Source: Rickettsiales bacterium (GTDB taxonomy: Bacteria; Pseudomonadota; Alphaproteobacteria; Rickettsiales; UBA8987). Taken from it: a DNA stretch of 64,000 nt. The notes beneath the pieces are model-generated. The model was not told the origin of the DNA. It saw only the letters and a list, made by a program, of their open reading frames with translations, and did not search any database. Positions 3,029-53,368 of the stretch are shown in pieces. A program made the position numbers and the translations under genes. Location: the NCBI GenBank assembly GCA_965222525.1, contig OZ244955.1, positions 640,140 through 704,139 on the forward strand. Reading direction: 5' to 3'. The stretch's first letter is position 1, and each line of letters starts with the position of its first letter.

Positions 3029-3063
3029 TATATAGTGTTTATACCTGAAATATTTAATGAAAT

Positions 3064-3253
3064 GTCACCCCGGACGCATATTTTGTCCAAATCTATTGAT
3101 TTGGTTAACAAAATAGCGTTCTCGGGGTTATAAGCAAAAACACGTGCTGTTACTTATAACCCCGAGAATGGTGGTTTCTAAAACGAAATCATCCACCTTC
3201 GCTAAAGCTATGGTGGACAAGTAGATTTCGAGAAACCATCCATCCGGGGTGAC
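3064..3253 (+). repeat. structured palindromic repeat family A, copy 1 (190 bp, enlarged right arm)
   Basis: Termini GTCACCCCGGA...TCCGGGGTGAC. Inner stem TTCTCGGGGTTAT/ATAACCCCGAGAA. Two side hairpins. Homologous to 37278-37433 and, in inverted orientation, to 53205-53360. Confidence 0.85.
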
Positions 3254-3333
3254 AGGGGCTTAAATATACCAGGTTAAAATACTATAATATACTACCGCTA
3301 AAACCTGTAACCTGTCACTTAAAACCTGAAATA

Positions 3334-7300: not shown

Positions 7301-7728
7301 TTCAAAAGCGACTGGCAGAATGAATGGATGGTCTGGATTTTCAAATCACCCGGATTATCCACCACATCCATAAACAGCCTGCGGGCGAGTGTCAGTATAT
7401 CCTTATCCGCAGGCACACCGGTCAGTTCCTCTATTTCCGATATGAGGCCAGCTTCATCCGAAATAGCCCAGCTTGCAAGCCGCCCATTTATCCGCTCCAC
7501 CATCTCGGCAGCAGCAGCATTGGTAAAGGTAAGGCAGAGGATTTTATTCGGAGCGGTTCCGGCCAGCATCAGCCGTAATACACGGTCAGTCAGAACCTTG
7601 GTCTTGCCGGTCCCGGCATTGGCCGAAACCCACACCGAATGCGCCGGATCCGCCGCCACTGCCTGCGGGTCAGTACCGATAGACTCATAATTTAAAGCAT
7701 TATAATTTTTTTCCAGTTCTGCATGCAT
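4369..7728 (-). CDS. addA: double-strand break repair helicase-nuclease AddA (UvrD/Rep helicase plus C-terminal PD-(D/E)XK nuclease)
   Basis: Walker A ANAGTGKTKVLT, helicase motifs (DEAQDTSP, VGDEKQSIFSFQGA, RIMTVHGSKGLQAP) and a C-terminal nuclease region (GQVDRLIV...IIDYKT). No addB is adjacent. Confidence 0.9.
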   Translation of the reverse strand: MHAELEKNYNALNYESIGTDPQAVAADPAHSVWVSANAGTGKTKVLTDRVLRLMLAGTAPNKILCLTFTNAAAAEMVERINGRLASWAISDEAGLISEIEELTGVPADKDILTLARRLFMDVVDNPGDLKIQTIHSFCQSLLKRFPLEAGIIPHFQVIDGQTSHELIREAWLRLLGSTQSTSDTTTRIAHLAQAAHDTTLRSIMNEIMEQRSILEDLLGEYGADGLVGKVHRQLGVRPEESKQSIIAEFIEATNIFPPRPIISLLQSGSTKDKEKSTRIKSLVNDMKNPGGEQYFADYISIFLTGKNEKRKPGGVVRAKLLEGHPDVESAILSEQERILATLDKTKSLNIAGLTASLVHTAEELLVLYRNLKTNRAFLDYTDLISAARRLLTRPDIAPWIMYKLDDGIDHILVDEAQDTSPEQWAIIEALCTDFFAGEGKREVKRTLFVVGDEKQSIFSFQGADPAVFGAMKQFFAQSWRPVLLDRSFRSTAPVLQAVDRVFSNSELLDAITVTEDSIKHDVNRSEDAGIVEIWPLVTSQEKEEPVPWELPLERKESDNSRAVLAGKIAATIRGWLDEKRILPSQGRAATEGDIMILVRKRDEFVEHMMRALKEQNINVAGTDRLSLTRHIAIMDLVALGDFLLLPEDDLTLATILKSPLIGISEQELFELAYNRGQKSLWQRVREDSGEAYDYLSRLLAKTDYMPPSEFYAYLLEVMGGRKDFIARLGDEVEDVLDEFLNYIAQYEATHIPSMQGFLQWIKSGGAVIKRDMEHGRDEVRIMTVHGSKGLQAPIVFLPDTTQVPVLRKQVLRYVECGFLWTGGAENRNRYCENLREDARQAQYEEYLRLLYVAMTRAADELYICGWQGQKNIPKNCWYNIICENLVDIADIINDGDERILRISSEQRCPVEVVTDITDTTETPELPEFALCEPAPEPDIAVPLTPSRPDGEESAGISPTERNNPYSRGRLIHLLLQILPDIEAETRKGAAQEIIERNAPDIAVPDKQQIIQEVFNIIDNPEFAEIFGVNSQAEVPISGIVGDRVISGQVDRLIVTDDKVLIIDYKTNLIPPENPTKIPRAYISQMNAYRSLLEKIYSTHQITCMLLWTNNMEVMEITDN

Positions 7729-7808
7729 GTCTTAGGTTACAGGTTGTAGGTTACAGGTTTAAGTTTTAATATATAATAACTAGGAATTTGGTCAAATCAC
7801 TTGTAACA

Positions 7809-18411: not shown

Positions 18412-18717
18412 GGGTAGGGTATTTTCAGCGTAACTGAAAGCAATTTAATAGGAATTTTTCATAACTGCAATATGTTACGGATAAATTTGCTGAAGCCAAC
18501 AGGCGATATATGGTATAATAACAGTAATTCAACCTGAAATATCTACCTGCCTACTGCTCCCCCGCTTTACAGGGGAGCAGATGAGACAAGGGCTTAAGCC
18601 CGCAGTCGAATCGCGGGGGGTAGTGAGTAAGTGGAAAATAGAAACAGGAATGAGTTAGCTTCTGTTCCAGTTTCTATTTTCCAGTTTCCACACCTCCCGC
18701 CAATTCGCCAAGATGAC

Positions 18718-20943: not shown

Positions 20944-21011
20944 TATATTGAGTGCTAAGTTCTGAGTCTCTGCTGTACCGTCTCAACACTTAACACTCAG
21001 CACTCAACACT
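20944..21011. repeat. intercistronic inverted repeat built from the GAGTGCTAAGT / GTGTTGAG word shared with repeat family B
   Basis: The sequence attgagtgctaagttctgagtc...caacacttaacactcagcactcaacac fills the whole gap between the NMO-like stop and the PelF-like start. The same words occur at about 45720-45770 and 51715-51780. Confidence 0.6.
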
Positions 21012-24297: not shown

Positions 24298-24387
24298 AAT
24301 TTTAGGTTGCAGGTTACAGGTTTTAGGTTACAGAAGGAGCCTGACCTGTTTATTATATGTTTTGATAGTAATGTGCAAGTTGTATGG

Positions 24388-37450: not shown

Positions 37451-37870
37451 CTACTTATTATCCGCTTCGGCGATGAAGGCATCGATCACCGACTGGGCTA
37501 TGTCAACCTCGCCCTGGGCGGCTTCCTTTTCCTTCTCGGTTTTTGCCTGCTGATGGAGCTTCTTGGTGGCCTCCAGACGCTTTTCCATGGCCTCTCTGGT
37601 ATGATTGGCAAAATCATAGGCCTCGGTAGCCAGTACCGTGCAGCGTTCATTGGTTATCTCGGCCACACCGCCGGCCACCAGATAGCGTGCCACTATCTCA
37701 TTGCCCTGATATGAGCGTATCACCCCCGGACGCAGATTGGATATCACCGGCGCATGTCCGGCCAGAACACCCATATCTCCCTCAGCCCCCGGCACAACCA
37801 CCATCTCCACCTCATCGGAGGAGAGAAGCTTCTCGGGTGTAACCAGGTCGAATTTTAATGACTGCGTCAT
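37451..37870 (-). CDS. atpC: F1 ATP synthase epsilon subunit
   Basis: LVTPEKLLSSDEVEMVVVPGAEGDMGVLAGHAPVISNLRPGVI is the epsilon beta-sandwich pattern. It is the last gene of the atp F1 set. Confidence 0.9.
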   Translation of the reverse strand: MTQSLKFDLVTPEKLLSSDEVEMVVVPGAEGDMGVLAGHAPVISNLRPGVIRSYQGNEIVARYLVAGGVAEITNERCTVLATEAYDFANHTREAMEKRLEATKKLHQQAKTEKEKEAAQGEVDIAQSVIDAFIAEADNK

Positions 37871-38335
37871 GATAATAGATGATAGATTATGGATGATAGA
37901 ATTAAATCTTTATTTTGCTTCGTAAATTTTGCAACATCCTTATTATAATTTCGTATTCATTATTCCAGTTATTAAAGGTTTTGGTATCTATATACCCCAA
38001 GTCAACACAATAGCACAACCAGATTTGCATTTCACTTGCGGAACCTATTGCTATGGAAATAAACCGCTTGAATTCTGCCTTTGAATGAGATTGTTTTACG
38101 AACCCCTCGGCCAGATTTGCACAAACAGACTTACTCGCCCTGCGCACCTGCTTGGCAAGGTCATACTGCTCTATCTGCGGAAATTCAAGACTTGCCTTAT
38201 GAATTTCCAGGGAGACAGCATAGGCTTTTTTAAAAACATCAAGGTCTCTTGCACTTTTAACCAGTCTTGAAGTTATATCCGTAACGTCTGCCATATTTTC
38301 CCCTCCATCATCCATCATCTATAATCCATCATCTG
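37871..38335 (-). mobile_element. IVS-like cassette 1: four-helix-bundle ORF bracketed by inverted repeats
   Basis: Arms at 37878-37899 (gatgatagattatggatgatag) and 38312-38333 (reverse complement gatgatggattatagatgatgg) match at 19 of 22 positions. All three differences are A/G. The cassette abuts the atpC start codon. Confidence 0.45.
37902..38294 (-). CDS. four-helix-bundle protein (23S rRNA intervening-sequence protein / Avd-like family)
   Basis: ARDLDVFKKAYAVSLEIHKASLEFPQIEQYDLAKQVRRASKSVCANLAEGF...AIGSASEMQIWLCYCVDLGYI matches the family pattern (F.vw..A..l...iy..t..fP..E.y.L..Q.rRAa.Si..NIAEG). The start is taken at MADVTD. The upstream MMDDGGEN is encoded by the repeat arm. Confidence 0.75.
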   Translation of the reverse strand: MADVTDITSRLVKSARDLDVFKKAYAVSLEIHKASLEFPQIEQYDLAKQVRRASKSVCANLAEGFVKQSHSKAEFKRFISIAIGSASEMQIWLCYCVDLGYIDTKTFNNWNNEYEIIIRMLQNLRSKIKI

Positions 38336-38360
38336 TTTATAGAACATATAATCGCCAGAT

Positions 38361-38735
38361 TCAATATGGTAAATTATCGGGAGCGACTCCGATATAGTCA
38401 GGCTCGGGGTTGGTGGTAAACTGAACGGCTTTTATTTGCTCCTCTCCCTGCAGAAATGCCTTGCCAACCCGGTGCATGCCGTCCATTACACGGCCATCCG
38501 AGGCAAGAATTATAGGAAAACTCAAGTCAGCGTCCCGGATTAGACCTGCATGCTCAAATACGCTTCTGCATGTAGGTGTTTTGCCATCAAGGAACCAGAA
38601 TGGTTCGTCAATTTCCCTTATTTCAGAAAGAGGAACCATCTTTGGTACGAACCCGCCGGAAAGCTCTATCAGACGGTCGATATCCCACGCTTTCAACCCC
38701 GCCCCGGACGGCTGGAAGTGATATTGCTTTCTCAT
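38361..38735 (-). CDS. small ParB/sulfiredoxin-like (ParB N-terminal domain) protein
   Basis: PIILASDGRVMDGMHRVGKAFLQG resembles the DGxHR core of ParB-N/Srx-fold proteins. This assignment is from memory of the motif only. Confidence 0.45.
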   Translation of the reverse strand: MRKQYHFQPSGAGLKAWDIDRLIELSGGFVPKMVPLSEIREIDEPFWFLDGKTPTCRSVFEHAGLIRDADLSFPIILASDGRVMDGMHRVGKAFLQGEEQIKAVQFTTNPEPDYIGVAPDNLPY

Positions 38736-38769
38736 GATGGTTGGGTGTTACAACTGTTTTTGTATTCCC

Positions 38770-39414
38770 TTAAAATCCTAAAGCACGTTCAGCACTTTTT
38801 AGCTCCTTAAGCTGGTTCTTAACACCAAGAGCTTCTCCGATTTTATTAGTGATAATACCTTCAATGATTTCTCTGGTTGATCTATCAGAAACCTGTTCTG
38901 CTTTATCATATGCCTCACCTATTGTTTTGCTCGGCAGTAGAGCTCCTAAAATTGTCGCAATGTTTTTATTGGTTCTATGCTCATATGTAACTTTCGCCTT
39001 CATTTCATTGTTATCAATTTCTAATGAACGTAGATTATCTCTATTCTTGTTTATGAAGTTGAACTGGGTTTCATAAGCACGAGCTCCTTCACCATACTTG
39101 GCTATAAACTCATTAAGCTTACCTTGTGTATTAGTTATAACTGCGCCAGGGTCTACTCTTGAAGCGCCATCAAAGGTATGCAAAGCGTTGCTTTCTATAA
39201 TGTTATAGTTGCCTCTTTCTCCGTATTCTTCTTTTGCTTTCTTGATAATCTGGTTTCTTGTAAGACTTTTTTCATTTTCCAAAGCAGAAGCAATTGAATA
39301 AATCGCAGCATTAACACCGGGTTGGATTTCATCAAAAGATGGATCCCCTGTTGCTAAATCTTTAGTGGACTGCGCCCAAGCTTTCACCTGATTGTTTTCT
39401 AGTTTGTCTGACAT
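38770..39414 (-). CDS. orphan protein (214 aa), cysteine-free, no signal peptide
   Basis: The start is chosen at MSDKLENNQ, preceded by AAGGAG with a 7 nt spacer. I recognise no family motif. It has its own promoter-like motif at 39489-39521. Confidence 0.5.
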   Translation of the reverse strand: MSDKLENNQVKAWAQSTKDLATGDPSFDEIQPGVNAAIYSIASALENEKSLTRNQIIKKAKEEYGERGNYNIIESNALHTFDGASRVDPGAVITNTQGKLNEFIAKYGEGARAYETQFNFINKNRDNLRSLEIDNNEMKAKVTYEHRTNKNIATILGALLPSKTIGEAYDKAEQVSDRSTREIIEGIITNKIGEALGVKNQLKELKSAERALGF

Positions 39415-39488
39415 TTCTCTCTCCTTAAAGTTAAAACCTGCCACCAATCCCCCCATGGAAAAGGTAGGCTGTTTTGTTTATGGGAGGG

Positions 39489-39521
39489 AGTATAGCAGAG
39501 AAATGTTAAAGTTTTATGACA
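39489..39521 (-). promoter_or_regulatory. extended -10 promoter-like motif shared with 29761-29793
   Basis: The minus strand reads TGTCATAAAACTTTAACATTTCTCTGCTATACT (TGnTATACT), about 70 nt upstream of the 39414 start. Confidence 0.45.
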
Positions 39522-39653
39522 GGATTACATTTTTTTGAAAAAATTTTCAGGAGGAGCCTAACCAGTTGGAATATATAGTTTTATTTTTGCAAAAATAATT
39601 TTGACAATCTGTCACTAGCAGTAAATATACCTGTATTTCCTTAAATAGTGTCG

Positions 39654-39872
39654 TCAAATTCTACCATTATGCGCTTCCACATAAGAGCGCAGAACGGCAT
39701 TCATATAGGACTGATAACCTTTTCCCTGTGATTTAAACCAGTCAACAACCTCTTTATCTGCACGGAAGGATATCATCTGCTTGGGAGAAGTATTGTGTAA
39801 TATCTTCAAATATTTCCAGAAATCACCGGTCAGGTCAGGAATATCGGAATAATCAATTTCGGAATCAGGCAT
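39654..39872 (-). CDS. BrnA-family antitoxin-like protein (no BrnT partner adjacent)
   Basis: MPDSEIDYSDIPDLTGDFWK...ISFRADKEVVDWFKSQGKGYQSYMNAVLRSYVEAH matches the BrnA pattern (DSEIDYSDIPE...ISIRLD.DVL.WFK..G.GYQT.IN..LR). The longer ORF start (39917, MMDDRGE) lies inside the repeat. Confidence 0.65.
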   Translation of the reverse strand: MPDSEIDYSDIPDLTGDFWKYLKILHNTSPKQMISFRADKEVVDWFKSQGKGYQSYMNAVLRSYVEAHNGRI

Positions 39873-39901
39873 CTCAGCCAATTCCCTAGCTGTTTTTTCT
39901 C

Positions 39902-39932
39902 CTCTATCATCCATCATCTATAATCCATCATC
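39902..39932. repeat. third copy of the GATGATGGATTATAGATGATGG word, abutting the atpD stop
   Basis: ctctatcatccatcatctataatccatcatc is identical to 38303-38333 except at one base. It is inverted relative to 37878-37899. Confidence 0.8.
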
Positions 39933-39938
39933 CAGCAG

Positions 39939-41372
<1,434 letters not shown>

Positions 41373-41386
41373 TTACTCCTTGAAAA

Positions 41387-41857
41387 GAAACTGGAAACTG
41401 GAAATTAGAAACTGGAATTTAATTACTTTCTGTCTTTAATCTTACTTCTGAGATTTTGCAGCATCCTGGATACGATATTATATTCCTCAACCCACTTGTT
41501 ATGCTTGTTTTTATCGATATAACCGAGATCAAGGCAATATTTTATCCATATTTTCATCTCTCCGCATGAACCTATCGACATAGAAACGAATCGCCGAAAT
41601 TCCGGAGTAGAATGCACTTGCTTATAAAAACCTTCTGCTAAATTTGCGCATACAGACTTGCTAGCCCTGCGCATCTGTTTAGCAAGGTCATATTGTTCTA
41701 CCTGTGGAAATTTAAGGCTAGTTCTGTGAATGTCCAGAGAAACAGCGTATGCTCTTTTGAAAACTTCCAAATCCTGAGGCTCTCTGACGTAACTGGAGAT
41801 GCTCTCAACATTACCCTCTTCCATACTTCCGGCTTCTAGTTTCCAGTTTCCAGTTTC
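41387..41857 (-). mobile_element. IVS-like cassette 2: four-helix-bundle ORF bracketed by a 24 nt inverted repeat
   Basis: 41387-41410 is gaaactggaaactggaaattagaa. The reverse complement of 41834-41857 is gaaactggaaactggaaactagaa. They match at 23 of 24 positions. The unit is 471 bp. Confidence 0.55.
41423..41824 (-). CDS. four-helix-bundle protein (23S rRNA intervening-sequence protein / Avd-like family), paralog of 37902..38294
   Basis: PQDLEVFKRAYAVSLDIHRTSLKFPQVEQYDLAKQMRRASKSVCANLAEGF...SIGSCGEMKIWIKYCLDLGYI is roughly two-thirds identical by eye to the other copy. The start is taken at MEEGNV. The upstream METGNWKLEAGS is encoded by the repeat arm. Confidence 0.75.
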   Translation of the reverse strand: MEEGNVESISSYVREPQDLEVFKRAYAVSLDIHRTSLKFPQVEQYDLAKQMRRASKSVCANLAEGFYKQVHSTPEFRRFVSMSIGSCGEMKIWIKYCLDLGYIDKNKHNKWVEEYNIVSRMLQNLRSKIKDRK

Positions 41858-41865
41858 CATATTTA

Positions 41866-42600
41866 TTATCCTTTCTCCGCAACCACCATCAATGACACCC
41901 CGAATGGAAATCTTATCTTTCCTATAAAAAACCTCTCGCTGCCAAAAATTTTTATCAGCAGGCTGTTAACGAAATTTCCCGGCAGGGTCAGGTTCGATAC
42001 CTTGCTTTTTTTATTTCTGAATTTCTCCACCATCCTCACCAGTGCTATCGGTGGAAACAGCCAGAAATTAAAATAGCTGGCATATTTTATATTAAAGCCC
42101 TCCGCTTTTAGCAATCCGGTCAGTCCCGCCCTGTTGTAGCGACGGAAATGATGATGGTCCGTATCATGTGCCGACCATAAAAACTGAAATGCCGGAACGG
42201 TCAGGAAAATCATACCATTATCTTTTAGCTGCCCTTTCAGTACCTCCAGTGTTTTCTGGTCATGTTCTATATGCTCAAGCACATCAAATGCAACAATTAA
42301 ATCGAACTTTTTATCCGCAAATGCAGTATTATCAGGCAATTCGATAGATTCGACATTTTCAGCAACTCCTTTTTCCCTTGCCACCTGTCTTGCGGTTGCA
42401 TCATATTCCGCTGCATAAACCCTGCCATATTGCGACAGCATCTCCAGATTGCCGCCACTACCGCAGCCTACTTCCAGAATTTCCGCATCCTGCGGAAGCT
42501 GCAACCTGTCAAGCATACGCCTGATTATCTTCCTGCGGGCAACAAACCACCAGTGCCTGCCCTCCAGCTCCGCCATCTTTATGTAGGCCTCGCGCTCCAT
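41866..42600 (-). CDS. class I SAM-dependent methyltransferase
   Basis: HWWFVARRKII plus SAM motif I ILEVGCGSGGNLEML and a post-I acidic residue. A GGGGAG Shine-Dalgarno sequence lies 5 nt upstream. It sits between atpG and atpD on the same strand. Confidence 0.8.
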   Translation of the reverse strand: MEREAYIKMAELEGRHWWFVARRKIIRRMLDRLQLPQDAEILEVGCGSGGNLEMLSQYGRVYAAEYDATARQVAREKGVAENVESIELPDNTAFADKKFDLIVAFDVLEHIEHDQKTLEVLKGQLKDNGMIFLTVPAFQFLWSAHDTDHHHFRRYNRAGLTGLLKAEGFNIKYASYFNFWLFPPIALVRMVEKFRNKKSKVSNLTLPGNFVNSLLIKIFGSERFFIGKIRFPFGVSLMVVAEKG

Positions 42601-42622
42601 TACGCTCCCCTATTATAAAAGT

Positions 42623-43525
42623 CTACAATGCCTCTGCGCCCGAGATGATCTCGGTCAGTTCGGTTGTAATAGCAGCCTGGCGGGTACGGTTATATTGCAG
42701 GGTTAAATCCTTTATCATCTCACCCGCATTGCGAGTGGCGTTATCCATCGCAGTCATCCGTGCCCCCTGCTCGCTTGCCGCATTCTCCAGCTGGGCGTGG
42801 AAAATCTGCACCGCAATATTTCTGGGCAGAAGCGCAGATAAAATCTCCTCCTCGCCAGGTTCATATTCATATACGGCGGCTACACCATCCTCGGCCTCTT
42901 CCGCAAGAACCCCATCCATCTCCAATGGAATCAATTGCTGGAAGGTTACTTTCTGGGTAAGTGCCGATTCAAACTTGTTATACACAACCGAGCAGGAATC
43001 AATATCACCAGCCTCAAACATGGTAATAACCTGATTCGCAACCGCTTCCGACTGCACATATTCCGGCTTTGCCTGACTGGAAGTATCTATACGTTCCGAC
43101 ACATTATTCTCATAACCATGTTTTAGCTGTTCCCAGCCTTTCTTACCGACTATCATCAGTCTGGCCAGCTTGCCCTTGCCTTCCATTTCGGTGATTTTCT
43201 GCTTTATCGCCCGCACCAGAGAACTGTTCAGCCCGCCGCAAAGCCCGCGGTCAGAAGTAACCGCTATAATCAGATGATTTTTATCGGCAATATCTCCCGC
43301 CGCATCACGCCTGCCCGAAAGAAGCGCAGGGGAATTTTCCGGATCAGCCTTGGTCGCCAGAGCCGCAAGCATACGCTCCATCTTTTCGGTATATGGCCGT
43401 GCCGCCTCCGCACGCTCCTGCGCACGCTTGAGCTTGCTCGCAGCCACCATCTTCATCGCCTTGGTGATTTTCTGCGTAGACTTAACACTACTTATACGGT
43501 TTTTCAGGTCCTTGAGATTTGCCAT
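42623..43525 (-). CDS. atpG: F1 ATP synthase gamma subunit
   Basis: MANLKDLKNRISSVKSTQKITKAMKMVAASKLKRAQ and the C-terminal QAAITTELTEIISGAEAL are gamma signatures. Confidence 0.93.
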   Translation of the reverse strand: MANLKDLKNRISSVKSTQKITKAMKMVAASKLKRAQERAEAARPYTEKMERMLAALATKADPENSPALLSGRRDAAGDIADKNHLIIAVTSDRGLCGGLNSSLVRAIKQKITEMEGKGKLARLMIVGKKGWEQLKHGYENNVSERIDTSSQAKPEYVQSEAVANQVITMFEAGDIDSCSVVYNKFESALTQKVTFQQLIPLEMDGVLAEEAEDGVAAVYEYEPGEEEILSALLPRNIAVQIFHAQLENAASEQGARMTAMDNATRNAGEMIKDLTLQYNRTRQAAITTELTEIISGAEAL

Positions 43526-43758
43526 CAGATATGTAGTTCCGTAGTCTGGTTGCTTTCCTCGTTAACTACCAAAAGGCTGGGTTCATCCTTACCTTTCAGT
43601 TGTTCATTAGCATTAAGCAACTCAATTCCATATATTTTCCCATCAGGAGACAGGTCAATATTCAACTCGCTACTGACCGATATGGTATCTACCATCCCGT
43701 CTTTCTCACGTAGTTTCATATACGCAATATTATGTTTTGGGTCGTATGTCAGTTTCAT
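43525..43758 (-). CDS. DUF2283-family protein (putative antitoxin partner)
   Basis: MKLTYDPKHNIAYMKLRE...DLSPDGKIYGIELLNANE fits the DUF2283 pattern (YD.E.D.LYI.L...D....G...GIEIL.AS). Its TGA overlaps the atpG ATG (TGATG). Confidence 0.65.
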   Translation of the reverse strand: MKLTYDPKHNIAYMKLREKDGMVDTISVSSELNIDLSPDGKIYGIELLNANEQLKGKDEPSLLVVNEESNQTTELHI

Positions 43759-43765
43759 CTTATCC

Positions 43766-44029
43766 TCAGAAGTATTTTACTATAACAGTGATAACCAGCC
43801 AATTTTCTTCCTCCTCTACTGCAAAAACCTCAAGCTGCTTATTATCATAAAACTTCCTGTTCCAGTGAGAGGAAAAATTAAAAGTTCTGCGGAAACCTAT
43901 TCTACCATACTTTGCAGAAAATTGCTCTCCATTTTCAACTGTAGATATAACCTCTTCTCTGGTTGCACCCCTTTCAACCATTCTTGCTTCAGCATGGGGA
44001 TGAAATTTCACATCCATGATTCTTTCCAT
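43766..44029 (-). CDS. DUF4258-family protein (putative toxin partner)
   Basis: FHPHAEARMVERGATREEVISTVENGE fits the DUF4258 N-terminal pattern (H...RM..R.I....V). Its ATG at 44029-44027 overlaps the atpA TGA (TGATG). Confidence 0.6.
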   Translation of the reverse strand: MERIMDVKFHPHAEARMVERGATREEVISTVENGEQFSAKYGRIGFRRTFNFSSHWNRKFYDNKQLEVFAVEEEENWLVITVIVKYF

Positions 44030-45564
44030 CAACTTTTCGCAAACACCTTAACAAATTTATCCAACGCGCTGCGGAGTTCCTTTTCGCTGTCTTCGGATAA
44101 TTTGCCTTCATTGCGGATTACATCCAGCAACCCCTGGTGTTTGCCATGCATTTCGCTCAGGAATTCCTTTTCAAAACGGGTTACATCCTTTGCATCTATA
44201 TCATCGAGATAACCATTTACACCGGCAAAGATGGAAACCACCTGCTCCTCCACCAGCAGCGGTGAATACTGGTCCTGCTTGAGCAGTTCCACCAGACGTG
44301 AACCGCGTGCCAGAAGTTTTTGCGTAGCCGCATCAAGGTCGGAGCCGAATTGTGCAAATGCCTCCATTTCACGGAACTGCGCCAGTTCCAGCTTAATCTT
44401 GCCTGCCACCTGTTTCATACCCTTGATTTGCGCTGCCGAACCTACCCTCGATACCGACAGTCCAACATTTACCGCCGGACGTACACCCTTATAAAACAGC
44501 TCGGTTTCAAGGAATATCTGGCCGTCGGTAATTGAAATCACATTAGTCGGGATATAGGCGGATACGTCACCGGCCTGGGTTTCGATAACCGGCAGGGCGG
44601 TAAGTGAACCGGCACCTTCTTCATCCGACATTTTAGCAGCCCGCTCAAGCAGCCGCGAGTGCACATAGAATACATCGCCCGGATAAGCCTCACGCCCCGG
44701 CGGACGGCGCAGCAATAGCGACATCTGACGATAGGCCACCGCATGTTTGGACAAATCATCATATGCAATCAGCGCATGCTTGCCGTTATCACGGAAATAC
44801 TCACCCATTGCACAGCCGGTATATGGTGCGAGGAACTGCAGCGGCGCCGATTCGGATGCGGTTGCGGCAACTATAATTGAATATTCAAGCGCACCTTCCT
44901 CCTCCAGCTTTTTGGCTATCTGCGCTACAGTCGAGCGCTTTTGCCCGATACACACATAGATACAGTAAAGTTTTTTACTTTCATCATCGCCTGCATTGAT
45001 GGATTTCTGGTTGAGGAATGTATCAAGAATCACGGCGGTCTTGCCGGTCTGACGGTCGCCGATAATCAACTCACGCTGGCCGCGCCCTACCGGAATCAGC
45101 CCGTCAATCGCCTTGATACCGGTCTGCACCGGCTCATGCACCGATTTACGTGCGATAATACCGGGAGCCTTTACCTCGATACGGGAACGGTTTTCGGTTA
45201 TCACCGGCCCCTTACCGTCGATAGGATTACCCAGCGCATCCACTACGCGGCCAAGCAGTTCGGGTCCTACCGGTACATCAACAATCCGGCCGGTACGCTT
45301 GACCGTATCGCCCTCCTTGATTTCCTTCTCGCCACCGAACAGCACTACCCCGACATTGTCCTCCTCGAGATTCAGCACCATCCCCACATTACCGCCGGGA
45401 AACTCCACCATCTCACCGGCCTGCACCTGGTCCAGCCCATATACGGTTGCAATACCGTCACCGACCGACACCACCTGCCCGATTTCTGCCAGTTCCGCCT
45501 CGGTTGAGAAATTGGCAATCTGCTTCTGCAAAATGCTTGATATTTCCGCTGCCTGAATTTGCAT
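44029..45564 (-). CDS. atpA: F1 ATP synthase alpha subunit
   Basis: [19 protein letters not shown] (P-loop) and [23 protein letters not shown]. Confidence 0.96.
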
Positions 45565-45617
45565 ATTATTCTCCTTTTATTACGTGTTTCTACCCGTTTT
45601 TCTTCGACTGTCGAGCG

Positions 45618-45842
45618 CCTCCCCCGCTTGCGGGGGAGGTAAGAAATTCTAGAAATCCATGTCCTCCGTAGCTTTAGCGCAGGAGGATTGATTTCAGAAT
45701 TTCTGGTGGGGGAATGTGTAAGTGTAAAGTGTTGAGTGCTAAGTCTCCTGCTGCAAACTCTCAGCACTTTAACCATTCCCTCCCCGAAAATCTGGCAATC
45801 AAAGATTGCTCAGATTTTCTCCCCTCCCGCAAGCGGGAGGGG
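45618..45842 (+). repeat. hairpin-terminated structured repeat family B, copy 1 (225 bp)
   Basis: Left terminus CCTCCCCCGC-TT-GCGGGGGAGG and right terminus CCCCTCCCGC-AA-GCGGGAGGGG are each perfect 10 bp hairpins. Internal hairpins include AGAAATTCT..GAATTTCT and GAAAATCTG..CAGATTTTC. It is collinear with 51643-51858. Confidence 0.85.
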
Positions 45843-45854
45843 TAGCTCCAGCTA

Positions 45855-46412
45855 TTACCCGGCTTTCTTCAAATAAACCTTTACCCTGTCCAGTTTTCCG
45901 CTCAGCGAGTCATCCAGCATTTGTGAGCCGATTTTTACAATCATCCCGCCGAGTATATCTTCGTCAAGCTTTTCCTCAACAGCCACTTCCTTGCCGGTCA
46001 TTTCTTTAAGTTCATTACCTATGCGGGTTATATCTGCCTTATCAAGCTTGTTTGCAACCGTAATTTCCGCCTGAACCTCCCCGCGCGCATTTGCAGCAAG
46101 CTCGGAGAAAGACGCACATATATCCGGCAAAAGCGATAACCTGCGGTTTTCCCCCAGTAATGCACAAAACTGGCCAATCAGTTTATCCGCCTTGATTTTC
46201 TTTACAATATCACCAATAGCAGCAGAAAGCTCTGACCTGGAAGTAGTCGGATTGCTCAAGGTTTTCTGTAATTCCTGCGATGACGCAATCACCGAATCAA
46301 GTTCATTTAATCCGGCTTCGATTTCTTCCAGCTTTCCCCCGGCCTTGCCAATCTCGAACAGCGCCTTTGCATAACGCCTGCCCAATACCAATTTCCCGAC
46401 TTTCCTTGCCAT
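45855..46412 (-). CDS. atpH: F1 ATP synthase delta subunit (OSCP)
   Basis: GRRYAKALFEIGKAGGKLEEIEAGLNEL... and the C-terminal GGMIVKIGSQMLDDSLSGKL fit the delta/OSCP pattern. It is the first gene of the F1 operon. Confidence 0.85.
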   Translation of the reverse strand: MARKVGKLVLGRRYAKALFEIGKAGGKLEEIEAGLNELDSVIASSQELQKTLSNPTTSRSELSAAIGDIVKKIKADKLIGQFCALLGENRRLSLLPDICASFSELAANARGEVQAEITVANKLDKADITRIGNELKEMTGKEVAVEEKLDEDILGGMIVKIGSQMLDDSLSGKLDRVKVYLKKAG

Positions 46413-48684: not shown

Positions 48685-48685
48685 A

Positions 48686-48830
48686 GGACATATTGATATT
48701 TGCTACTATCATGGGCTGCAAATGGCCGTTTTCTACGCTTCCGTTGCGCATGTACCCTTAAGTACACTTACGCTACGGGTCTCGAAAACAGCCATTTTCG
48801 CCACATGCTAGCGCAAATCTCAATATGTCC
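48686..48830. repeat. 145 bp imperfect palindrome between convergent genes
   Basis: The left end is GGACATATTGATATTTGC. The reverse complement of the right end is GGACATATTGAGATTTGC. Arm similarity continues inward (AAATGGCCGTTTTC / AAATGGCTGTTTTC) to a central ttaa. Confidence 0.65.
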
Positions 48831-48846
48831 TGGGTATTCCGTGCGT

Positions 48847-50012: not shown

Positions 50013-50127
50013 GATTTTCTCCTCGTTTTTGTGCTCGGTGTTCAGTGTACGGTGTACGGAATACCAGCATAAAAACCCGAACACTGATAACAGAACACCG
50101 AACACCATAATACCCCTTTTCCGGTGA

Positions 50128-51618
50128 TTATGCAAATTTTATGGCATTCTGTGCGGCGGCAATCAATGCACCGGCCTTGTTTTCGGTCTCCATAAACTCA
50201 GCTTCGGCATCACTATCGGCCACAACGCCACCACCTGCCTGTACATATAACACACCGTCCCTGATCAGCCCTGTACGCAATGCAATACAGCTATCCATAT
50301 CACCACCGGCGGAAAAATACCCCACAGTACCGCCGTAAAAGCTACGTTTCTCCTGCTCAAGCTCGTCTATAATTTCCATCGCCCGTATCTTGGGCGCACC
50401 GCTTACCGTACCAGCCGGAAACCCTGCTATCAGCGCATCAATCGCATCCTTATCCGTAGCAATCCTGCCCTCAACATTGGAAACTATATGCATCACATGC
50501 GAATAGCGCTCCACCACCATCCGCTCGGTTACTTGAACACTGCCGGTCTGCGCCACACGCCCGACATCATTACGCCCCAGATCAAGCAGCATAAGATGCT
50601 CGGCCAGCTCCTTCTCATCAGCCAGTAAATCCTGCTCCAGCGCCTTGTCCTCGGCCGGATTGGAGCCGCGCTTGCGAGTGCCGGCCAGCGGACGGATAGT
50701 AACCGTATCATCCTGCAACCGTACCAGTATCTCCGGACTCGAGCCGATAAGCGAAAAGTCCTTGAGATGCACATAAAACAGATATGGCGATGGATTCAGA
50801 TGACGCAGCGAGCGGTAGAAAGCAAATGGATGCAGGTCAAATTTCGCCGAAAGCCGGCGGGAAGGCACCACCTGAAATATATCACCGGCAATTATATACT
50901 CCTTCGCCTTCTCTACGATTTTATGATAGTCATCCCTGCCGGTGTGGGAGTTAAATTCAAGCTTCCCTACCGCATCTGCTGCATAATATTTGGAAAATAT
51001 CGAACGTTTCAGGCTTATATTAAGCGCTTCAACAATCGCGGAAATCCGTTCCTGCGCCTGTTTATATGCTGTTTCTGCATCTTCACCGCCACCCCATACC
51101 GGTGTGATGATAATAGCCTGGTCCTTTACCGAATCAAATATGACAGTGATTTTCGGGCGGATATATATGCTCTGCGCTATGCCGATATTGTCAGGGTTTT
51201 CATCCGGCAGCTTCTCCATCAGCTTGACCATATCATACCCCATATAGCCAAACAGACCGGCAGCCATAGGAGGCAGCGCATCCGGTATATCAATTTGTGA
51301 CTCGCTGACCAGCCTGCGCAGGGATGCAAATACATCCTCCGCTTCCGGTGCAAACTCACCGTCCCCACGCTTAATCTCGGCCTTACCATCAACACAGCGC
51401 CATATTATATCGGGATCGAGGGCGATTATCGAATAGCGGGCACGGGTCTCGCCACCCTCCACCGACTCAAACAACAGGTGATACTCACTCTCCTCCATAA
51501 GCTTGAGCATGGCGGTAACCGGGGTCTCCAGGTCAGTCAGGAGCTCCGCCCATACCAGTTGCGCCTGCCCCCTGGCATGTTTTACGGAGAATTCATCTAT
51601 TTCAGGAAAGAATTTCAT
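50128..51618 (-). CDS. trpE: anthranilate synthase component I
   Basis: LLFESVEGGETRARYSII, the chorismate-binding region GTRKRG...LLADEKELAEHLMLLDLGRNDVGRV and GAPKIRAMEIIDELE. Confidence 0.93.
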   Translation of the reverse strand: MKFFPEIDEFSVKHARGQAQLVWAELLTDLETPVTAMLKLMEESEYHLLFESVEGGETRARYSIIALDPDIIWRCVDGKAEIKRGDGEFAPEAEDVFASLRRLVSESQIDIPDALPPMAAGLFGYMGYDMVKLMEKLPDENPDNIGIAQSIYIRPKITVIFDSVKDQAIIITPVWGGGEDAETAYKQAQERISAIVEALNISLKRSIFSKYYAADAVGKLEFNSHTGRDDYHKIVEKAKEYIIAGDIFQVVPSRRLSAKFDLHPFAFYRSLRHLNPSPYLFYVHLKDFSLIGSSPEILVRLQDDTVTIRPLAGTRKRGSNPAEDKALEQDLLADEKELAEHLMLLDLGRNDVGRVAQTGSVQVTERMVVERYSHVMHIVSNVEGRIATDKDAIDALIAGFPAGTVSGAPKIRAMEIIDELEQEKRSFYGGTVGYFSAGGDMDSCIALRTGLIRDGVLYVQAGGGVVADSDAEAEFMETENKAGALIAAAQNAIKFA

Positions 51619-51642
51619 TATTTGTCAAGTTTTGTTGGAAAT

Positions 51643-51858
51643 CCTCCCCCGCTTGCGGGGGAGGCAAGAAATCCAGGGATTTTCAATCCTTAGGATTTCT
51701 GGTGGGGGAATAAATAAGTGCAAAGTGTTGAGTGCTAGGTCTCCTGTTGCAAACTCTCAGCACTAAACACACAGCACTCGGCACCTCATCATTCCCTCCC
51801 CGAAAATCTGGAAAGCATAGCTTTCTCAGATTTTCTCCCCTCCCGCAAGCGGGAGGGG
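51643..51858 (+). repeat. hairpin-terminated structured repeat family B, copy 2 (216 bp)
   Basis: It has the same termini and order of hairpins as 45618-45842. It fills the gap between the M16 peptidase stop (51860) and the trpE start (51618). Confidence 0.85.
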
Positions 51859-51859
51859 G

Positions 51860-53191
51860 TTACTCCGGATACAATTTCCCGGTCACGGAGCGTTCGGGTT
51901 TGAAGATATATTCTGCGGCAGCGGTAATTTGCGCAGAAGTTACATTATCAACCATAACAGGCCAGTTTTCAATATATGATGTATCCAGGCCGGAGACCAG
52001 TACCCTGCCATATATATGTGCCATATTCTGCAATCCATCCTGCGCATAGATAGCCTCTGCTTTCAGCTTTTTCTGCGCACGCTGTAATTCCTTATTTGTA
52101 ACCCCCTCATCCAGAATTGCCTTTAATTCCTGTTTTACCGCTGCTTCCACCCTGGCAAAATCAACATCCTTTGCCGGCACGACATACAGTGTAAATGAAG
52201 TCGGTCCCAGTGAAATATCATCATAATAAGCATAGGCCTGCAATGCCAGTTTCTTTTCCACTACCAGCGATTGATACAGCCTGCCGGTTTCGCTGCCACC
52301 CAGCACTTCCGCCAGCAATACCAGCGGCAGCGCATGTTCGCTCTTGCCATATGTACTGCTCGGTGCCAGATACATCCTTATCCATTCCGGCTCCCTTACC
52401 TTCTCATCCTGCACTGTAACCTCACGAAATGCCGAAGGTTGTGGCTCCATGGGGATTTCCCTTGGCGGGGTATCCTGCGCCGGGATATTGCCGTAATATC
52501 TCTCCGCCAGCGGACGCAATTCCTCTGCCGTAATATCGCCTGCAACAATAAGCACTGCATTATTCGGTGCATAATATTTACGGTAAAATGCCCCGGTATC
52601 ATGCAGTGTAAATTGCTCTATCTCATGCCGCCAGCCGATTGTAGGCTTGTTATATGGATGGTTGAGGTAAAGTGCCGCCCGCATCTGCTCGGTGAGCTTG
52701 TTGCGCGGCTTGTTATCAATCCGCGAACTGCGCTCCTCCAGCACAACATCACGCTCACGGGTAACCAGCTCTTCATCAAGCTGTAGGCCGGTCATCCGGT
52801 CAGCCTCCAGCATCATCGCAAGTGCCAGATTCTCCCGCGCAATATTCTGGAAATAGGTGGTGTTATCCTGTGTGGTGAATGCATTATCATTACCGCCGAA
52901 ATTGGCTATCAGTGAGGAGAATTCACCAGGCTGCAGATTTTCCGTCCCGCGAAACATCAGATGCTCCAGAAAATGCGCTATACCGGATTTGCCAGGCTCT
53001 TCGTCAATTGCCCCGACCTTGTACCATAACATATGCGAAACCGCCGCCACCCTGGGATTGGGAATCACATAAACCTCCAGCCCGTTACCCAGCGTAAAAT
53101 TCTCCACCCTGGGCGGATTGGCATGGGCAGGCGACAGGCAGACCAGTAACAGTACGAGAATCGGGAGGATGTTTGTTATGATTTTGTTCAT
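51860..53191 (-). CDS. M16 family zinc peptidase (pitrilysin-like)
   Basis: The HFLEHLMF (HxxEH) zinc site, then ...E...NAFT. Signal peptide MNKIITNILPILVLLLVCLSPAHA from the start at 53191. Confidence 0.85.
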   Translation of the reverse strand: MNKIITNILPILVLLLVCLSPAHANPPRVENFTLGNGLEVYVIPNPRVAAVSHMLWYKVGAIDEEPGKSGIAHFLEHLMFRGTENLQPGEFSSLIANFGGNDNAFTTQDNTTYFQNIARENLALAMMLEADRMTGLQLDEELVTRERDVVLEERSSRIDNKPRNKLTEQMRAALYLNHPYNKPTIGWRHEIEQFTLHDTGAFYRKYYAPNNAVLIVAGDITAEELRPLAERYYGNIPAQDTPPREIPMEPQPSAFREVTVQDEKVREPEWIRMYLAPSSTYGKSEHALPLVLLAEVLGGSETGRLYQSLVVEKKLALQAYAYYDDISLGPTSFTLYVVPAKDVDFARVEAAVKQELKAILDEGVTNKELQRAQKKLKAEAIYAQDGLQNMAHIYGRVLVSGLDTSYIENWPVMVDNVTSAQITAAAEYIFKPERSVTGKLYPE

Positions 53192-53204
53192 AGTTACGAT
53201 TACT

Positions 53205-53360
53205 GTCACCCCGGATGGTATGTTTTCTCCAAATTTTAATTTGGTAAGAAAACACCATTCCCGGGGTTATTATATAAGTCACGGAATTGTACAGGTAACC
53301 CCGAGAACGTTATTTTGTTACCAAATCACAGATTTGGACAAAATATACGTCCGGGGTGAC
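53205..53360 (-). repeat. structured palindromic repeat family A, copy 3 (156 bp, inverted orientation)
   Basis: Its reverse complement aligns along its full length with 37278-37433. The right-arm apical stem is CCAAAT/ATTTGG instead of CTGAATC/GATTCAG. Confidence 0.85.
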
Positions 53361-53368
53361 ATACATTA

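Follow-up and report, generated by a model that had tools for sequence, protein, structure and literature searches.

Two copies of an inverted hairpin doublet past stop codons in an alphaproteobacterial genome: probably a non-autonomous palindromic repeat

REPINs are REP doublets that form hairpins and are mobilised by RAYT transposases (Bertels and Rainey; PMC3116915, PMC3337134). The doublet is inverted in a TT-AA configuration, its poorly conserved spacer is still hairpin-forming, and decaying singlets are known (PMC3337134). The REPINs of SBW25 measure about 89 bp, with listed spacings of about 35-72 nt (PMC3337134). In the REP superfamilies, one end of the palindrome bears a tetranucleotide tag, GTAG or CGTC (Di Nocera et al., PMC3733652). 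The BIMEs of enterobacteria and the RIMEs, Sm-repeats and AB-C palindromes of rhizobia are intergenic mosaic elements (cited in PMC2573895, PMC2873474).

The window, by which we mean the whole 64-kb stretch of DNA analysed, contains two copies of an intergenic element, referred to here as repeat family B (Table 1). Judging from AtpA, whose best named matches are those of Kordiimonas and Futiania (79-80% identity; other relatives reach at most 87%), the window belongs to the Alphaproteobacteria; the host is deep-branching and has a GC content of 48%. The coordinates, termini and flanking genes assigned to both copies in the initial annotation of this DNA were borne out, the genes by Pfam, and pairwise alignment confirmed that the copies are collinear and identically oriented relative to the minus-strand genes around them. 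They are 82% identical across the aligned stretch including flanks, and the repeat finder returned two blocks in common, one of 73 nt (90%) and one of 69 nt (93%). Two indels separate them, namely 29 extra nt in the H2 apex of copy 1 and 20 extra nt in the core of copy 2. The earlier statement that the element exactly fills its two gaps was too strong: copy 1 occupies 225 of 290 nt (12 nt from the atpH stop and 53 nt, with AAGGAGA, from the atpA ATG) and copy 2 takes up 216 of 241 nt (at 1 nt from the stop of the peptidase and 24 nt from the trpE side). Both copies start 1-12 nt past a stop codon, and neither intrudes on the downstream start region. The sole ORF found in a search of the element for a small-peptide gene was an out-of-frame overlap with atpA.

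GGAG(N)TA stands directly before the element on the sense strand in both copies; with n = 2, it was set aside as a shared target motif. No Shine-Dalgarno sequence was recognisable for trpE in the 24 nt (51619-51642) between copy 2 and the ATG, and the GGAGG nearest to this ATG, 24 nt upstream, is locked inside the terminal hairpin of copy 2.

Table 1. Coordinates of the element, of its parts and of neighbouring features in the window
Feature	Position	Strand	Remarks
Copy 1	45618-45842	+	225 nt; from the atpH stop side to the atpA start side
Copy 1, terminal hairpin T1	45618-45639	+	CCTCCCCCGC-TT-GCGGGGGAGG
Copy 1, hairpin H2	45642-45704	+	Base AGAAATTC...GAATTTCT; additional 29-nt paired apex
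Copy 1, central hairpin H3	45705-45785	+	GGTGGGGGAAT (45705-45715) pairs with ATTCCCTCCCC (45775-45785); heptamer-rich core inside
Copy 1, hairpin H4	45786-45819	+	GAAAATCTG...CAGATTTTC
Copy 1, terminal hairpin T5	45821-45842	+	CCCCTCCCGC-AA-GCGGGAGGGG; inverted counterpart of T1, 82% complementary
Copy 2	51643-51858	+	216 nt; from the M16 peptidase stop side to the trpE start side
Copy 2, left unit	51643-51711	+	T1 (51643-51664), H2 (51667-51700), G-block GGTGGGGGAAT (51701-51711)
Copy 2, heptamer-rich core	51712-51790	+	Exceeds the core of copy 1 by 20 nt
Copy 2, right unit	51791-51858	-	T5 (51837-51858), H4, G-block GGGGAGGGAAT; collinear with the left unit
OSCP/atpH (ATP synthase delta)	45855-46412	-	Pfam
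atpA (ATP synthase alpha)	44029-45564	-	Pfam
M16 peptidase	51860-53209	-	Pfam
trpE (anthranilate synthase I)	50128-51618	-	Pfam
Free-standing heptamer-repeat hairpin	20944-21011	.	Akin to the core word; without T, H2 or H4 modules
atpH-atpA junction			Family B element (copy 1)
atpA-atpG junction	43525-44032		DUF4258/DUF2283 toxin-antitoxin-like pair
atpG-atpD junction	41866-42600; 41423-41860		Methyltransferase; 23S_rRNA_IVP gene
atpD-atpC junction	37902-39456		Two unknown ORFs and a second 23S_rRNA_IVP gene
Past atpC			Repeat family A

The element is built from a unit of ~68 nt, which consists of a 22-nt GC-rich hairpin with a CTTG/CAAG loop, an AGAAAT...ATTTCT hairpin whose base is conserved and whose apex is free-running, and a G-rich 11-mer (GGnGGGGGAAT block). 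The left terminus T1 is CCTCCCCCGCTTGCGGGGGAGG and the right terminus T5 is CCCCTCCCGCAAGCGGGAGGGG, with TT and AA, respectively, as their loop centres (inverted TT...AA). Because the left unit (T1, H2 and GGTGGGGGAAT) aligns collinearly with the reverse-complemented right unit (T5, H4 and GGGGAGGGAAT), the element is an inverted doublet of this unit, arranged around a core of 57-77 nt, and is more regular than first described. The core is made of GTGYTGA-like heptamers, and the G-rich and C-rich 11-mers pair across it to give five hairpins in a row; the pairing of GGTGGGGGAAT with ATTCCCTCCCC around the middle, which had been proposed at the outset, holds with one G-U and one mismatch. Taken as terminal inverted repeats, the termini show 82% complementarity over 22 nt, or 80% over 25 nt in copy 2.

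Searched with a profile of the unit, the window yielded four matches and no more (E 1e-15 to 1e-17). The terminal hairpin pattern CCYCYCCCGCWWGCGGGRGRGG, with up to 3 mismatches, likewise matched only four times in the 64 kb (0.01 expected by chance), namely at both ends of both copies, and exact matches of the internal junction words CATTCCCTCCCCGAAAATCTGG and ATTTCTGGTGGGGGAAT within the window were confined to the two copies. The central word does recur elsewhere, as had been claimed, at 20945-20959 (2 mismatches) and on the opposite strand at 20996-21010 (1 mismatch). This is the site of a free-standing heptamer hairpin that occupies the entire 68-nt gap between the stop of an NMO-like gene and the start of a PelF-like gene; a second such hairpin lies past trpE at 50026-50110.

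Like REPINs, the element has inverted palindromes in TT...AA with a sequence between them that is poorly conserved yet folds, and it pairs as a whole, given the complementarity of T1 and T5, the inverted units and a folding centroid in which T1 pairs with T5 in both copies. It also resembles REPINs in that a solitary unit exists in another genome, and in being intergenic, non-coding and able to fold as DNA or RNA alike. Unlike REPINs, the window element is 216-225 nt long with 172-181 nt between the palindromes, and is thus two to three times larger; its unit is a composite of two hairpins and a G-block; and its termini are perfect 10+10 palindromes without a consistent GTAG/CGTC tag. The termini read CCTC.../...GAGG and CCCC.../...GGGG, and GTAG was seen at a single place, spanning the right junction of copy 1 (GGGG followed by TAG), where copy 2 reads GGGGG followed by TTAC. 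RAYT genes are typically flanked by repeats, and REPIN copies number tens to hundreds per genome; the 64-kb window holds two copies of the element, and no gene for RAYT (Y1 HUH transposase) was found in it. The architecture fits that published for REPINs, but membership cannot be claimed in view of the absence of a RAYT from the window, the absence of the tags and the larger composite unit.

Each copy folds on either strand into T1, H2, the long central H3, H4 and T5. The predicted energies of the RNA plus strand were -120.6 kcal/mol (z -11.6) for copy 1 and -108.8 kcal/mol (z -9.5) for copy 2, those of the minus strand were -115.7 kcal/mol (z -11.6) and -114.6 kcal/mol (z -10.9), respectively, and the plus strand folded as single-stranded DNA gave z -11.7 and -9.0. 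In the two-copy alignment all 69 of 69 consensus pairs are kept, none being broken, and the substitutions in shared stems keep pairing in 10 of 10 cases. The covariation check yielded four double compensatory pairs (U-A to C-G in H2, G-C to A-U in H3, C-G to A-U and U-A to G-C in H4) and two further pairs altered on one side, via G-U. The compensation between the apices CAATC/GATTG and GAAAGC/GCTTTC, pointed out in the initial annotation, proved to be real (alignment columns 199/211 and 202/208). Pairs kept without exception and compensatory substitutions indicate a real pressure to remain palindromic. The preference for the better-folding strand is small and is reversed between the copies, and G-U positions occur on both strands, so that the mRNA strand is not singled out.

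That last point bears on whether the element is a functional cis-acting RNA module of a polycistronic mRNA, one that would block exonucleases or be processed by RNase III/E and so make neighbouring cistrons independent of each other in stability or translation. Some REP sequences have been shown to act as exonuclease barriers or in processing. The sense-strand structure of the element is very stable (z -11.6 and -10.9), and every stem substitution preserves pairing. Both copies lie just past a stop in the same orientation relative to transcription, which carries little weight at n = 2, and the solitary unit in the relative's locus L125 is likewise just past a stop codon in the atp operon. We nevertheless consider such a role unlikely. 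Folding is just as good for the antisense strand and for single-stranded DNA, the difference between strands flips its sign from one copy to the other, and the hairpin apices are swapped wholesale, including the 29-nt indel, rather than conserved. In addition, the element is missing from the same operon junction in seven relatives, the adjacency of M16 and trpE is missing in the one relative examined, and the ATP synthase and peptidase/tryptophan synthesis loci share no regulatory logic. There is no Rfam family either: the window had no match at gathering thresholds, a search at E up to 1 returned only sub-threshold matches to miRNA or whalefall-1 hairpins, which we attribute to chance, and no match fell on the hairpins in the loci of hairpin-bearing relatives. 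A known RNA family was accordingly rejected for want of an Rfam match. The strands and single-stranded DNA folding alike, the lack of an Rfam match and of a sense terminator, and the functionally unrelated host loci also leave the original description as a structured intercistronic RNA element unsupported in so far as it implied function.

The terminal stems are GC-rich, 9-10 bp long and closed by stable CUUG/CAAG tetraloops, and they belong to elements directly past stop codons, as would suit a terminator or attenuator, perhaps acting in both directions, that apportions transcription to the genes on either side. Formal matches to a terminator do occur on the plus (antisense) strand, at 45794-45810 and 51810-51826, but each is the apex of H4, whose own 3' arm serves as the 'tail'. 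No terminator-like site was found on the sense (minus) strand within either copy, none of the sense hairpins has a U-tract after it, and the candidate was rejected on this account. Moreover, a stop between atpH and atpA would cut off the remainder of an essential operon, while the 53 nt before atpA hold no convincing promoter, the sole candidate being a 9/12 match. Termination is therefore highly improbable in our judgement.

The atpH-atpA spacer is 290 nt long here versus 20, 34, 26, 109, 46, 65, and 15 nt in seven relatives, all of them distant (AtpA 82-87% identical), from which it follows that copy 1 is an insertion; as the relatives with the empty site are no closer than 87% in AtpA, the insertion is not dated. 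The native ribosome-binding segment AATAAAAGGAGA before the atpA ATG is kept downstream of the insert and is common to the relative L122, which places the insertion point of copy 1 upstream of that native site. The C-terminus of the M16 peptidase beside copy 2 is intact and has the same end point as its homologues, so that copy 2 caused no truncation. The element was inserted into short spacers between genes, directly past stop codons. Both copies had been placed inside probable operons, and this stands for atpHAGDC; for M16-trpE it does not, since in GCA_054015435.1, the one relative examined (M16 peptidase 54% identical), the next gene is a second M16 gene and not trpE, which leaves the operon context of copy 2 unsupported.

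The M16 homologues were also considered as a second empty-site test and rejected as uninformative on insertion, in the longest ORF; the extra N-terminal codons enter a copy of repeat family A (53203-53361), and the true start is therefore probably downstream.

Judging from two full copies in the 64-kb window and one solitary unit, we think it likely that this is a palindromic repeat, non-coding and non-autonomous, of the REP/REPIN/BIME/RIME/MITE kind, inserted past stop codons and passively co-transcribed. It is best read as a common and well-documented sort of bacterial repeat, not as a new type of RNA regulator. Such a repeat would spread in trans with the help of an enzyme whose gene lies elsewhere in the genome, most plausibly a hairpin-recognising single-strand transposase of the IS200/IS605-RAYT type; alternatively, recombination or replication acting on the hairpins might mobilise it. 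The selection seen on the stems would then be selection for the DNA palindrome that spread needs. Within the atp operon, copy 1 must be transcribed along with the genes, as a very stable, non-terminating mRNA structure upstream of the kept atpA ribosome-binding site, and any effect of the element on mRNA processing or stability is probably incidental. Small palindromic repeats are markers of genome plasticity and a frequent source of annotation errors (spurious ORFs, false sRNA or terminator calls). The present element shows a clean anatomy of unit, inverted doublet and nested core, and it is tolerated within an essential, stoichiometry-sensitive operon of a poorly known alphaproteobacterial lineage.

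As to the alternative offered in the initial annotation, a MITE, the term holds in the broad sense of a non-coding palindromic repeat with inverted termini and without a counterpart in the atpH-atpA spacer of seven relatives; a target-site duplication and a parent transposase were not found in the 64-kb window. The flanks are GAGCG and TAGCT at copy 1 and GAAAT and GTTAC at copy 2, with no duplication. No Y1_Tnp or other transposase was detected among the 54 ORFs of >=90 aa in the window, and no parent IS with the same termini in the window, plasmids, phages or viral contigs. Like the MITEs (Correia/NEMIS, ERIC, RUP, BOX, and the Rickettsia palindromic elements), the element lies within 100-400 nt, is non-coding, has terminal inverted repeats and forms a long imperfect palindrome that is co-transcribed with its neighbours and inserted relative to orthologous sites. 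Unlike them, it has no target-site duplication, an IS with matching termini did not turn up in the sequences searched, and its termini are self-complementary hairpins instead of simple inverted repeats. No sequence similarity to any Rfam, plasmid or phage record was seen. A CRISPR, an integron attC and a DGR were also rejected, as the architecture differs and no Cas, integrase or reverse transcriptase is nearby.

With BIMEs and RIMEs, compared by description, the element shares palindromic units and linkers in a mosaic, an intergenic and often intra-operon position, and an alphaproteobacterial host. It differs from the rhizobial repeats in that plasmid BLAST, rhizobial plasmids included, was negative and in its deep-branching host of 48% GC; the search covered 72,556 plasmids and returned nothing at E up to 1e-3. 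Work of 1995 by Osteras and colleagues reportedly first found RIME1 between chvI and chvG, as two large palindromes. To our knowledge, neither the AGAAAT hairpin nor the heptamer core is known from RIMEs. The nested small dispersed repeats and heptamer (STRR-type) hairpins of cyanobacteria, which Elhai and colleagues are said to have described in 2008, offer a further likeness: the element has a GTGYTGA-type heptamer core that also occurs as free-standing hairpins (20944-21011 and 50026-50110), and its modules are nested, e.g., H2 between hairpin and G-block, a nesting that we infer from three or four arrangements (window, L125, L128, and L092). The phylum and the sequences are other than those of the cyanobacterial repeats.

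Outside the window, a solitary unit was found at positions 11565-11632 of L125 (GCA_054015435.1; E 1.8e-15), 28 nt past the atpA stop and 79% identical to the left unit of copy 2; the unit profile detected no further units in 43 kb of this genome or in the loci of six other relatives. A scan of the genome collection with the junction 20-mer ATTCCCTCCCCGAAAATCTG gave one chance match, within a coding region of Muribaculaceae. The scan of viral contigs gave no match, nor did BLAST against phages, and a literature search on the hairpin sequence retrieved only papers on unrelated eukaryotic or viral subjects. By itself, the 22-nt hairpin is present in at least 120 metagenome contigs (median GC 65% among the matches listed), as judged by a permissive scan pattern of terminal hairpin plus AGAAA; since this pattern demanded AGAAA, the AGAAA flank is biased and provides no independent evidence. 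Among the matches listed, the contigs have only the 22-nt hairpin in common with the window element, 77 of 168 hairpins adjoin a G-block or C-block (G-rich or C-rich), and there are 35 adjacent hairpin pairs 8-174 nt apart. Some of these hairpins form arrays, or doublets around a central hairpin. The lower-GC contigs L092 and L093 carry the hairpin followed by AGAAA and GGTGGGGG, and the hairpin followed by AGAAATCTTAT...ATAAGATTTCT, AGAAA having been required by the scan. In the relative GCA_028282625.1, two tandem elements of ~240 nt lie past atpC (L128 12440-12830), each with a GC hairpin and then TTAGGG(T/A)G(A/G)GGGG; this hairpin is a variant in the first element and the T hairpin itself in the second, and both elements are without the AGAAAT hairpin.

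Tandem arrays of the 22-nt hairpin were also observed in high-GC metagenome contigs (L002 944-1085, L075 1069-1180, and L007 558-707), with periods of 40, 45, and 64 nt, respectively, and bounded by CCCTCACCC / GGGTGAGGG blocks. The combination of GC-rich hairpin and GGGTGAGGG-type block in high-GC contigs presumably resembles that of rhizobial intergenic repeats.

Recurrence of the hairpin with an adjacent G-block across many contigs might be expected of a DNA-level host motif, that is, a site for a nucleoid, gyrase or replication protein, a role proposed for some BIMEs, or of a G-quadruplex/hairpin switch formed by the G-rich arm and the G-block. The hairpin arm and block of L128 make up GGGGGAGGGTTAGGGAGGGGG, a canonical four-tract G-quadruplex motif, and the right unit in the window has four G3+ tracts on the minus strand, with H4 as a long loop. 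The left unit, however, is without four G3 tracts, so that the potential is not conserved even inside one element, and the G-arm is locked in a perfect hairpin of 9-10 bp. We know of no binding protein for the motif, and its absence from the orthologous sites of relatives argues against a required host function. We give very little credence to this explanation. Doubtful, too, is the reading that the window element belongs, as one lineage, to a large and so far undescribed superfamily of modular hairpin repeats in alphaproteobacteria, built on a CCYCYCCCGC-NN-GCGGGRGRGG hairpin plus a G-rich block with nested hairpins and heptamer cores, served by a non-GTAG/CGTC machinery, and with some copies, e.g., that of the atp operon, co-opted as mRNA insulators that adjust subunit stoichiometry. 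If hairpin and G-block did form one mobile superfamily with its own enzyme, the REPIN/RAYT picture would reach beyond gammaproteobacteria.

The non-autonomous palindromic repeat that we favour has company in the window. Foreign DNA was found at every junction of the atpHAGDC operon (37451-46412; Table 1), extra ORFs lie between atp genes in the relatives L125, L128, and L130 too, and further palindromic repeats and heptamer hairpins fill gaps nearby. Small selfish insertions are clearly tolerated by this genome.

Repeat family A has three copies (3031-3286, 37276-37434, and 53203-53361) with termini TGTCACCCCGGA / TCCGGGGTGACA and internal arms of 52-66 nt. One copy lies just past the atpC stop, and another lies between the QueH stop and the M16 start, which gives the M16 gene a family A copy on its upstream side and a family B copy on its downstream side. 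Heptamer hairpins or short arrays of the GTGYTGA, TTTCCAG, and AGGTTRY types occur in intergenic gaps at 20944-21011, 50026-50110, 18629-18686, 41827-41866, 7727-7766, and 24304-24329; we take them to resemble the STRR-type repeats of cyanobacteria. At 4165-4332 of L125, in the relative GCA_054015435.1, a 6S RNA gene (Rfam RF00013, 56 bits) was noticed next to zapA. The 38-nt direct repeat TTTTCCCCTCCATCATCCATCATCTATAATCCATCATC, at 38296-38333 and 39895-39932 (95% identical), brackets a 1.6-kb block with two unknown ORFs past atpD and may represent the boundaries of an inserted cassette. Directly past the stop of a 690-aa Ser/Thr kinase gene, a 19-nt inverted-repeat pair (48685-48703 / 48813-48831), 95% complementary and 109 nt apart, may be another small MITE-like element.
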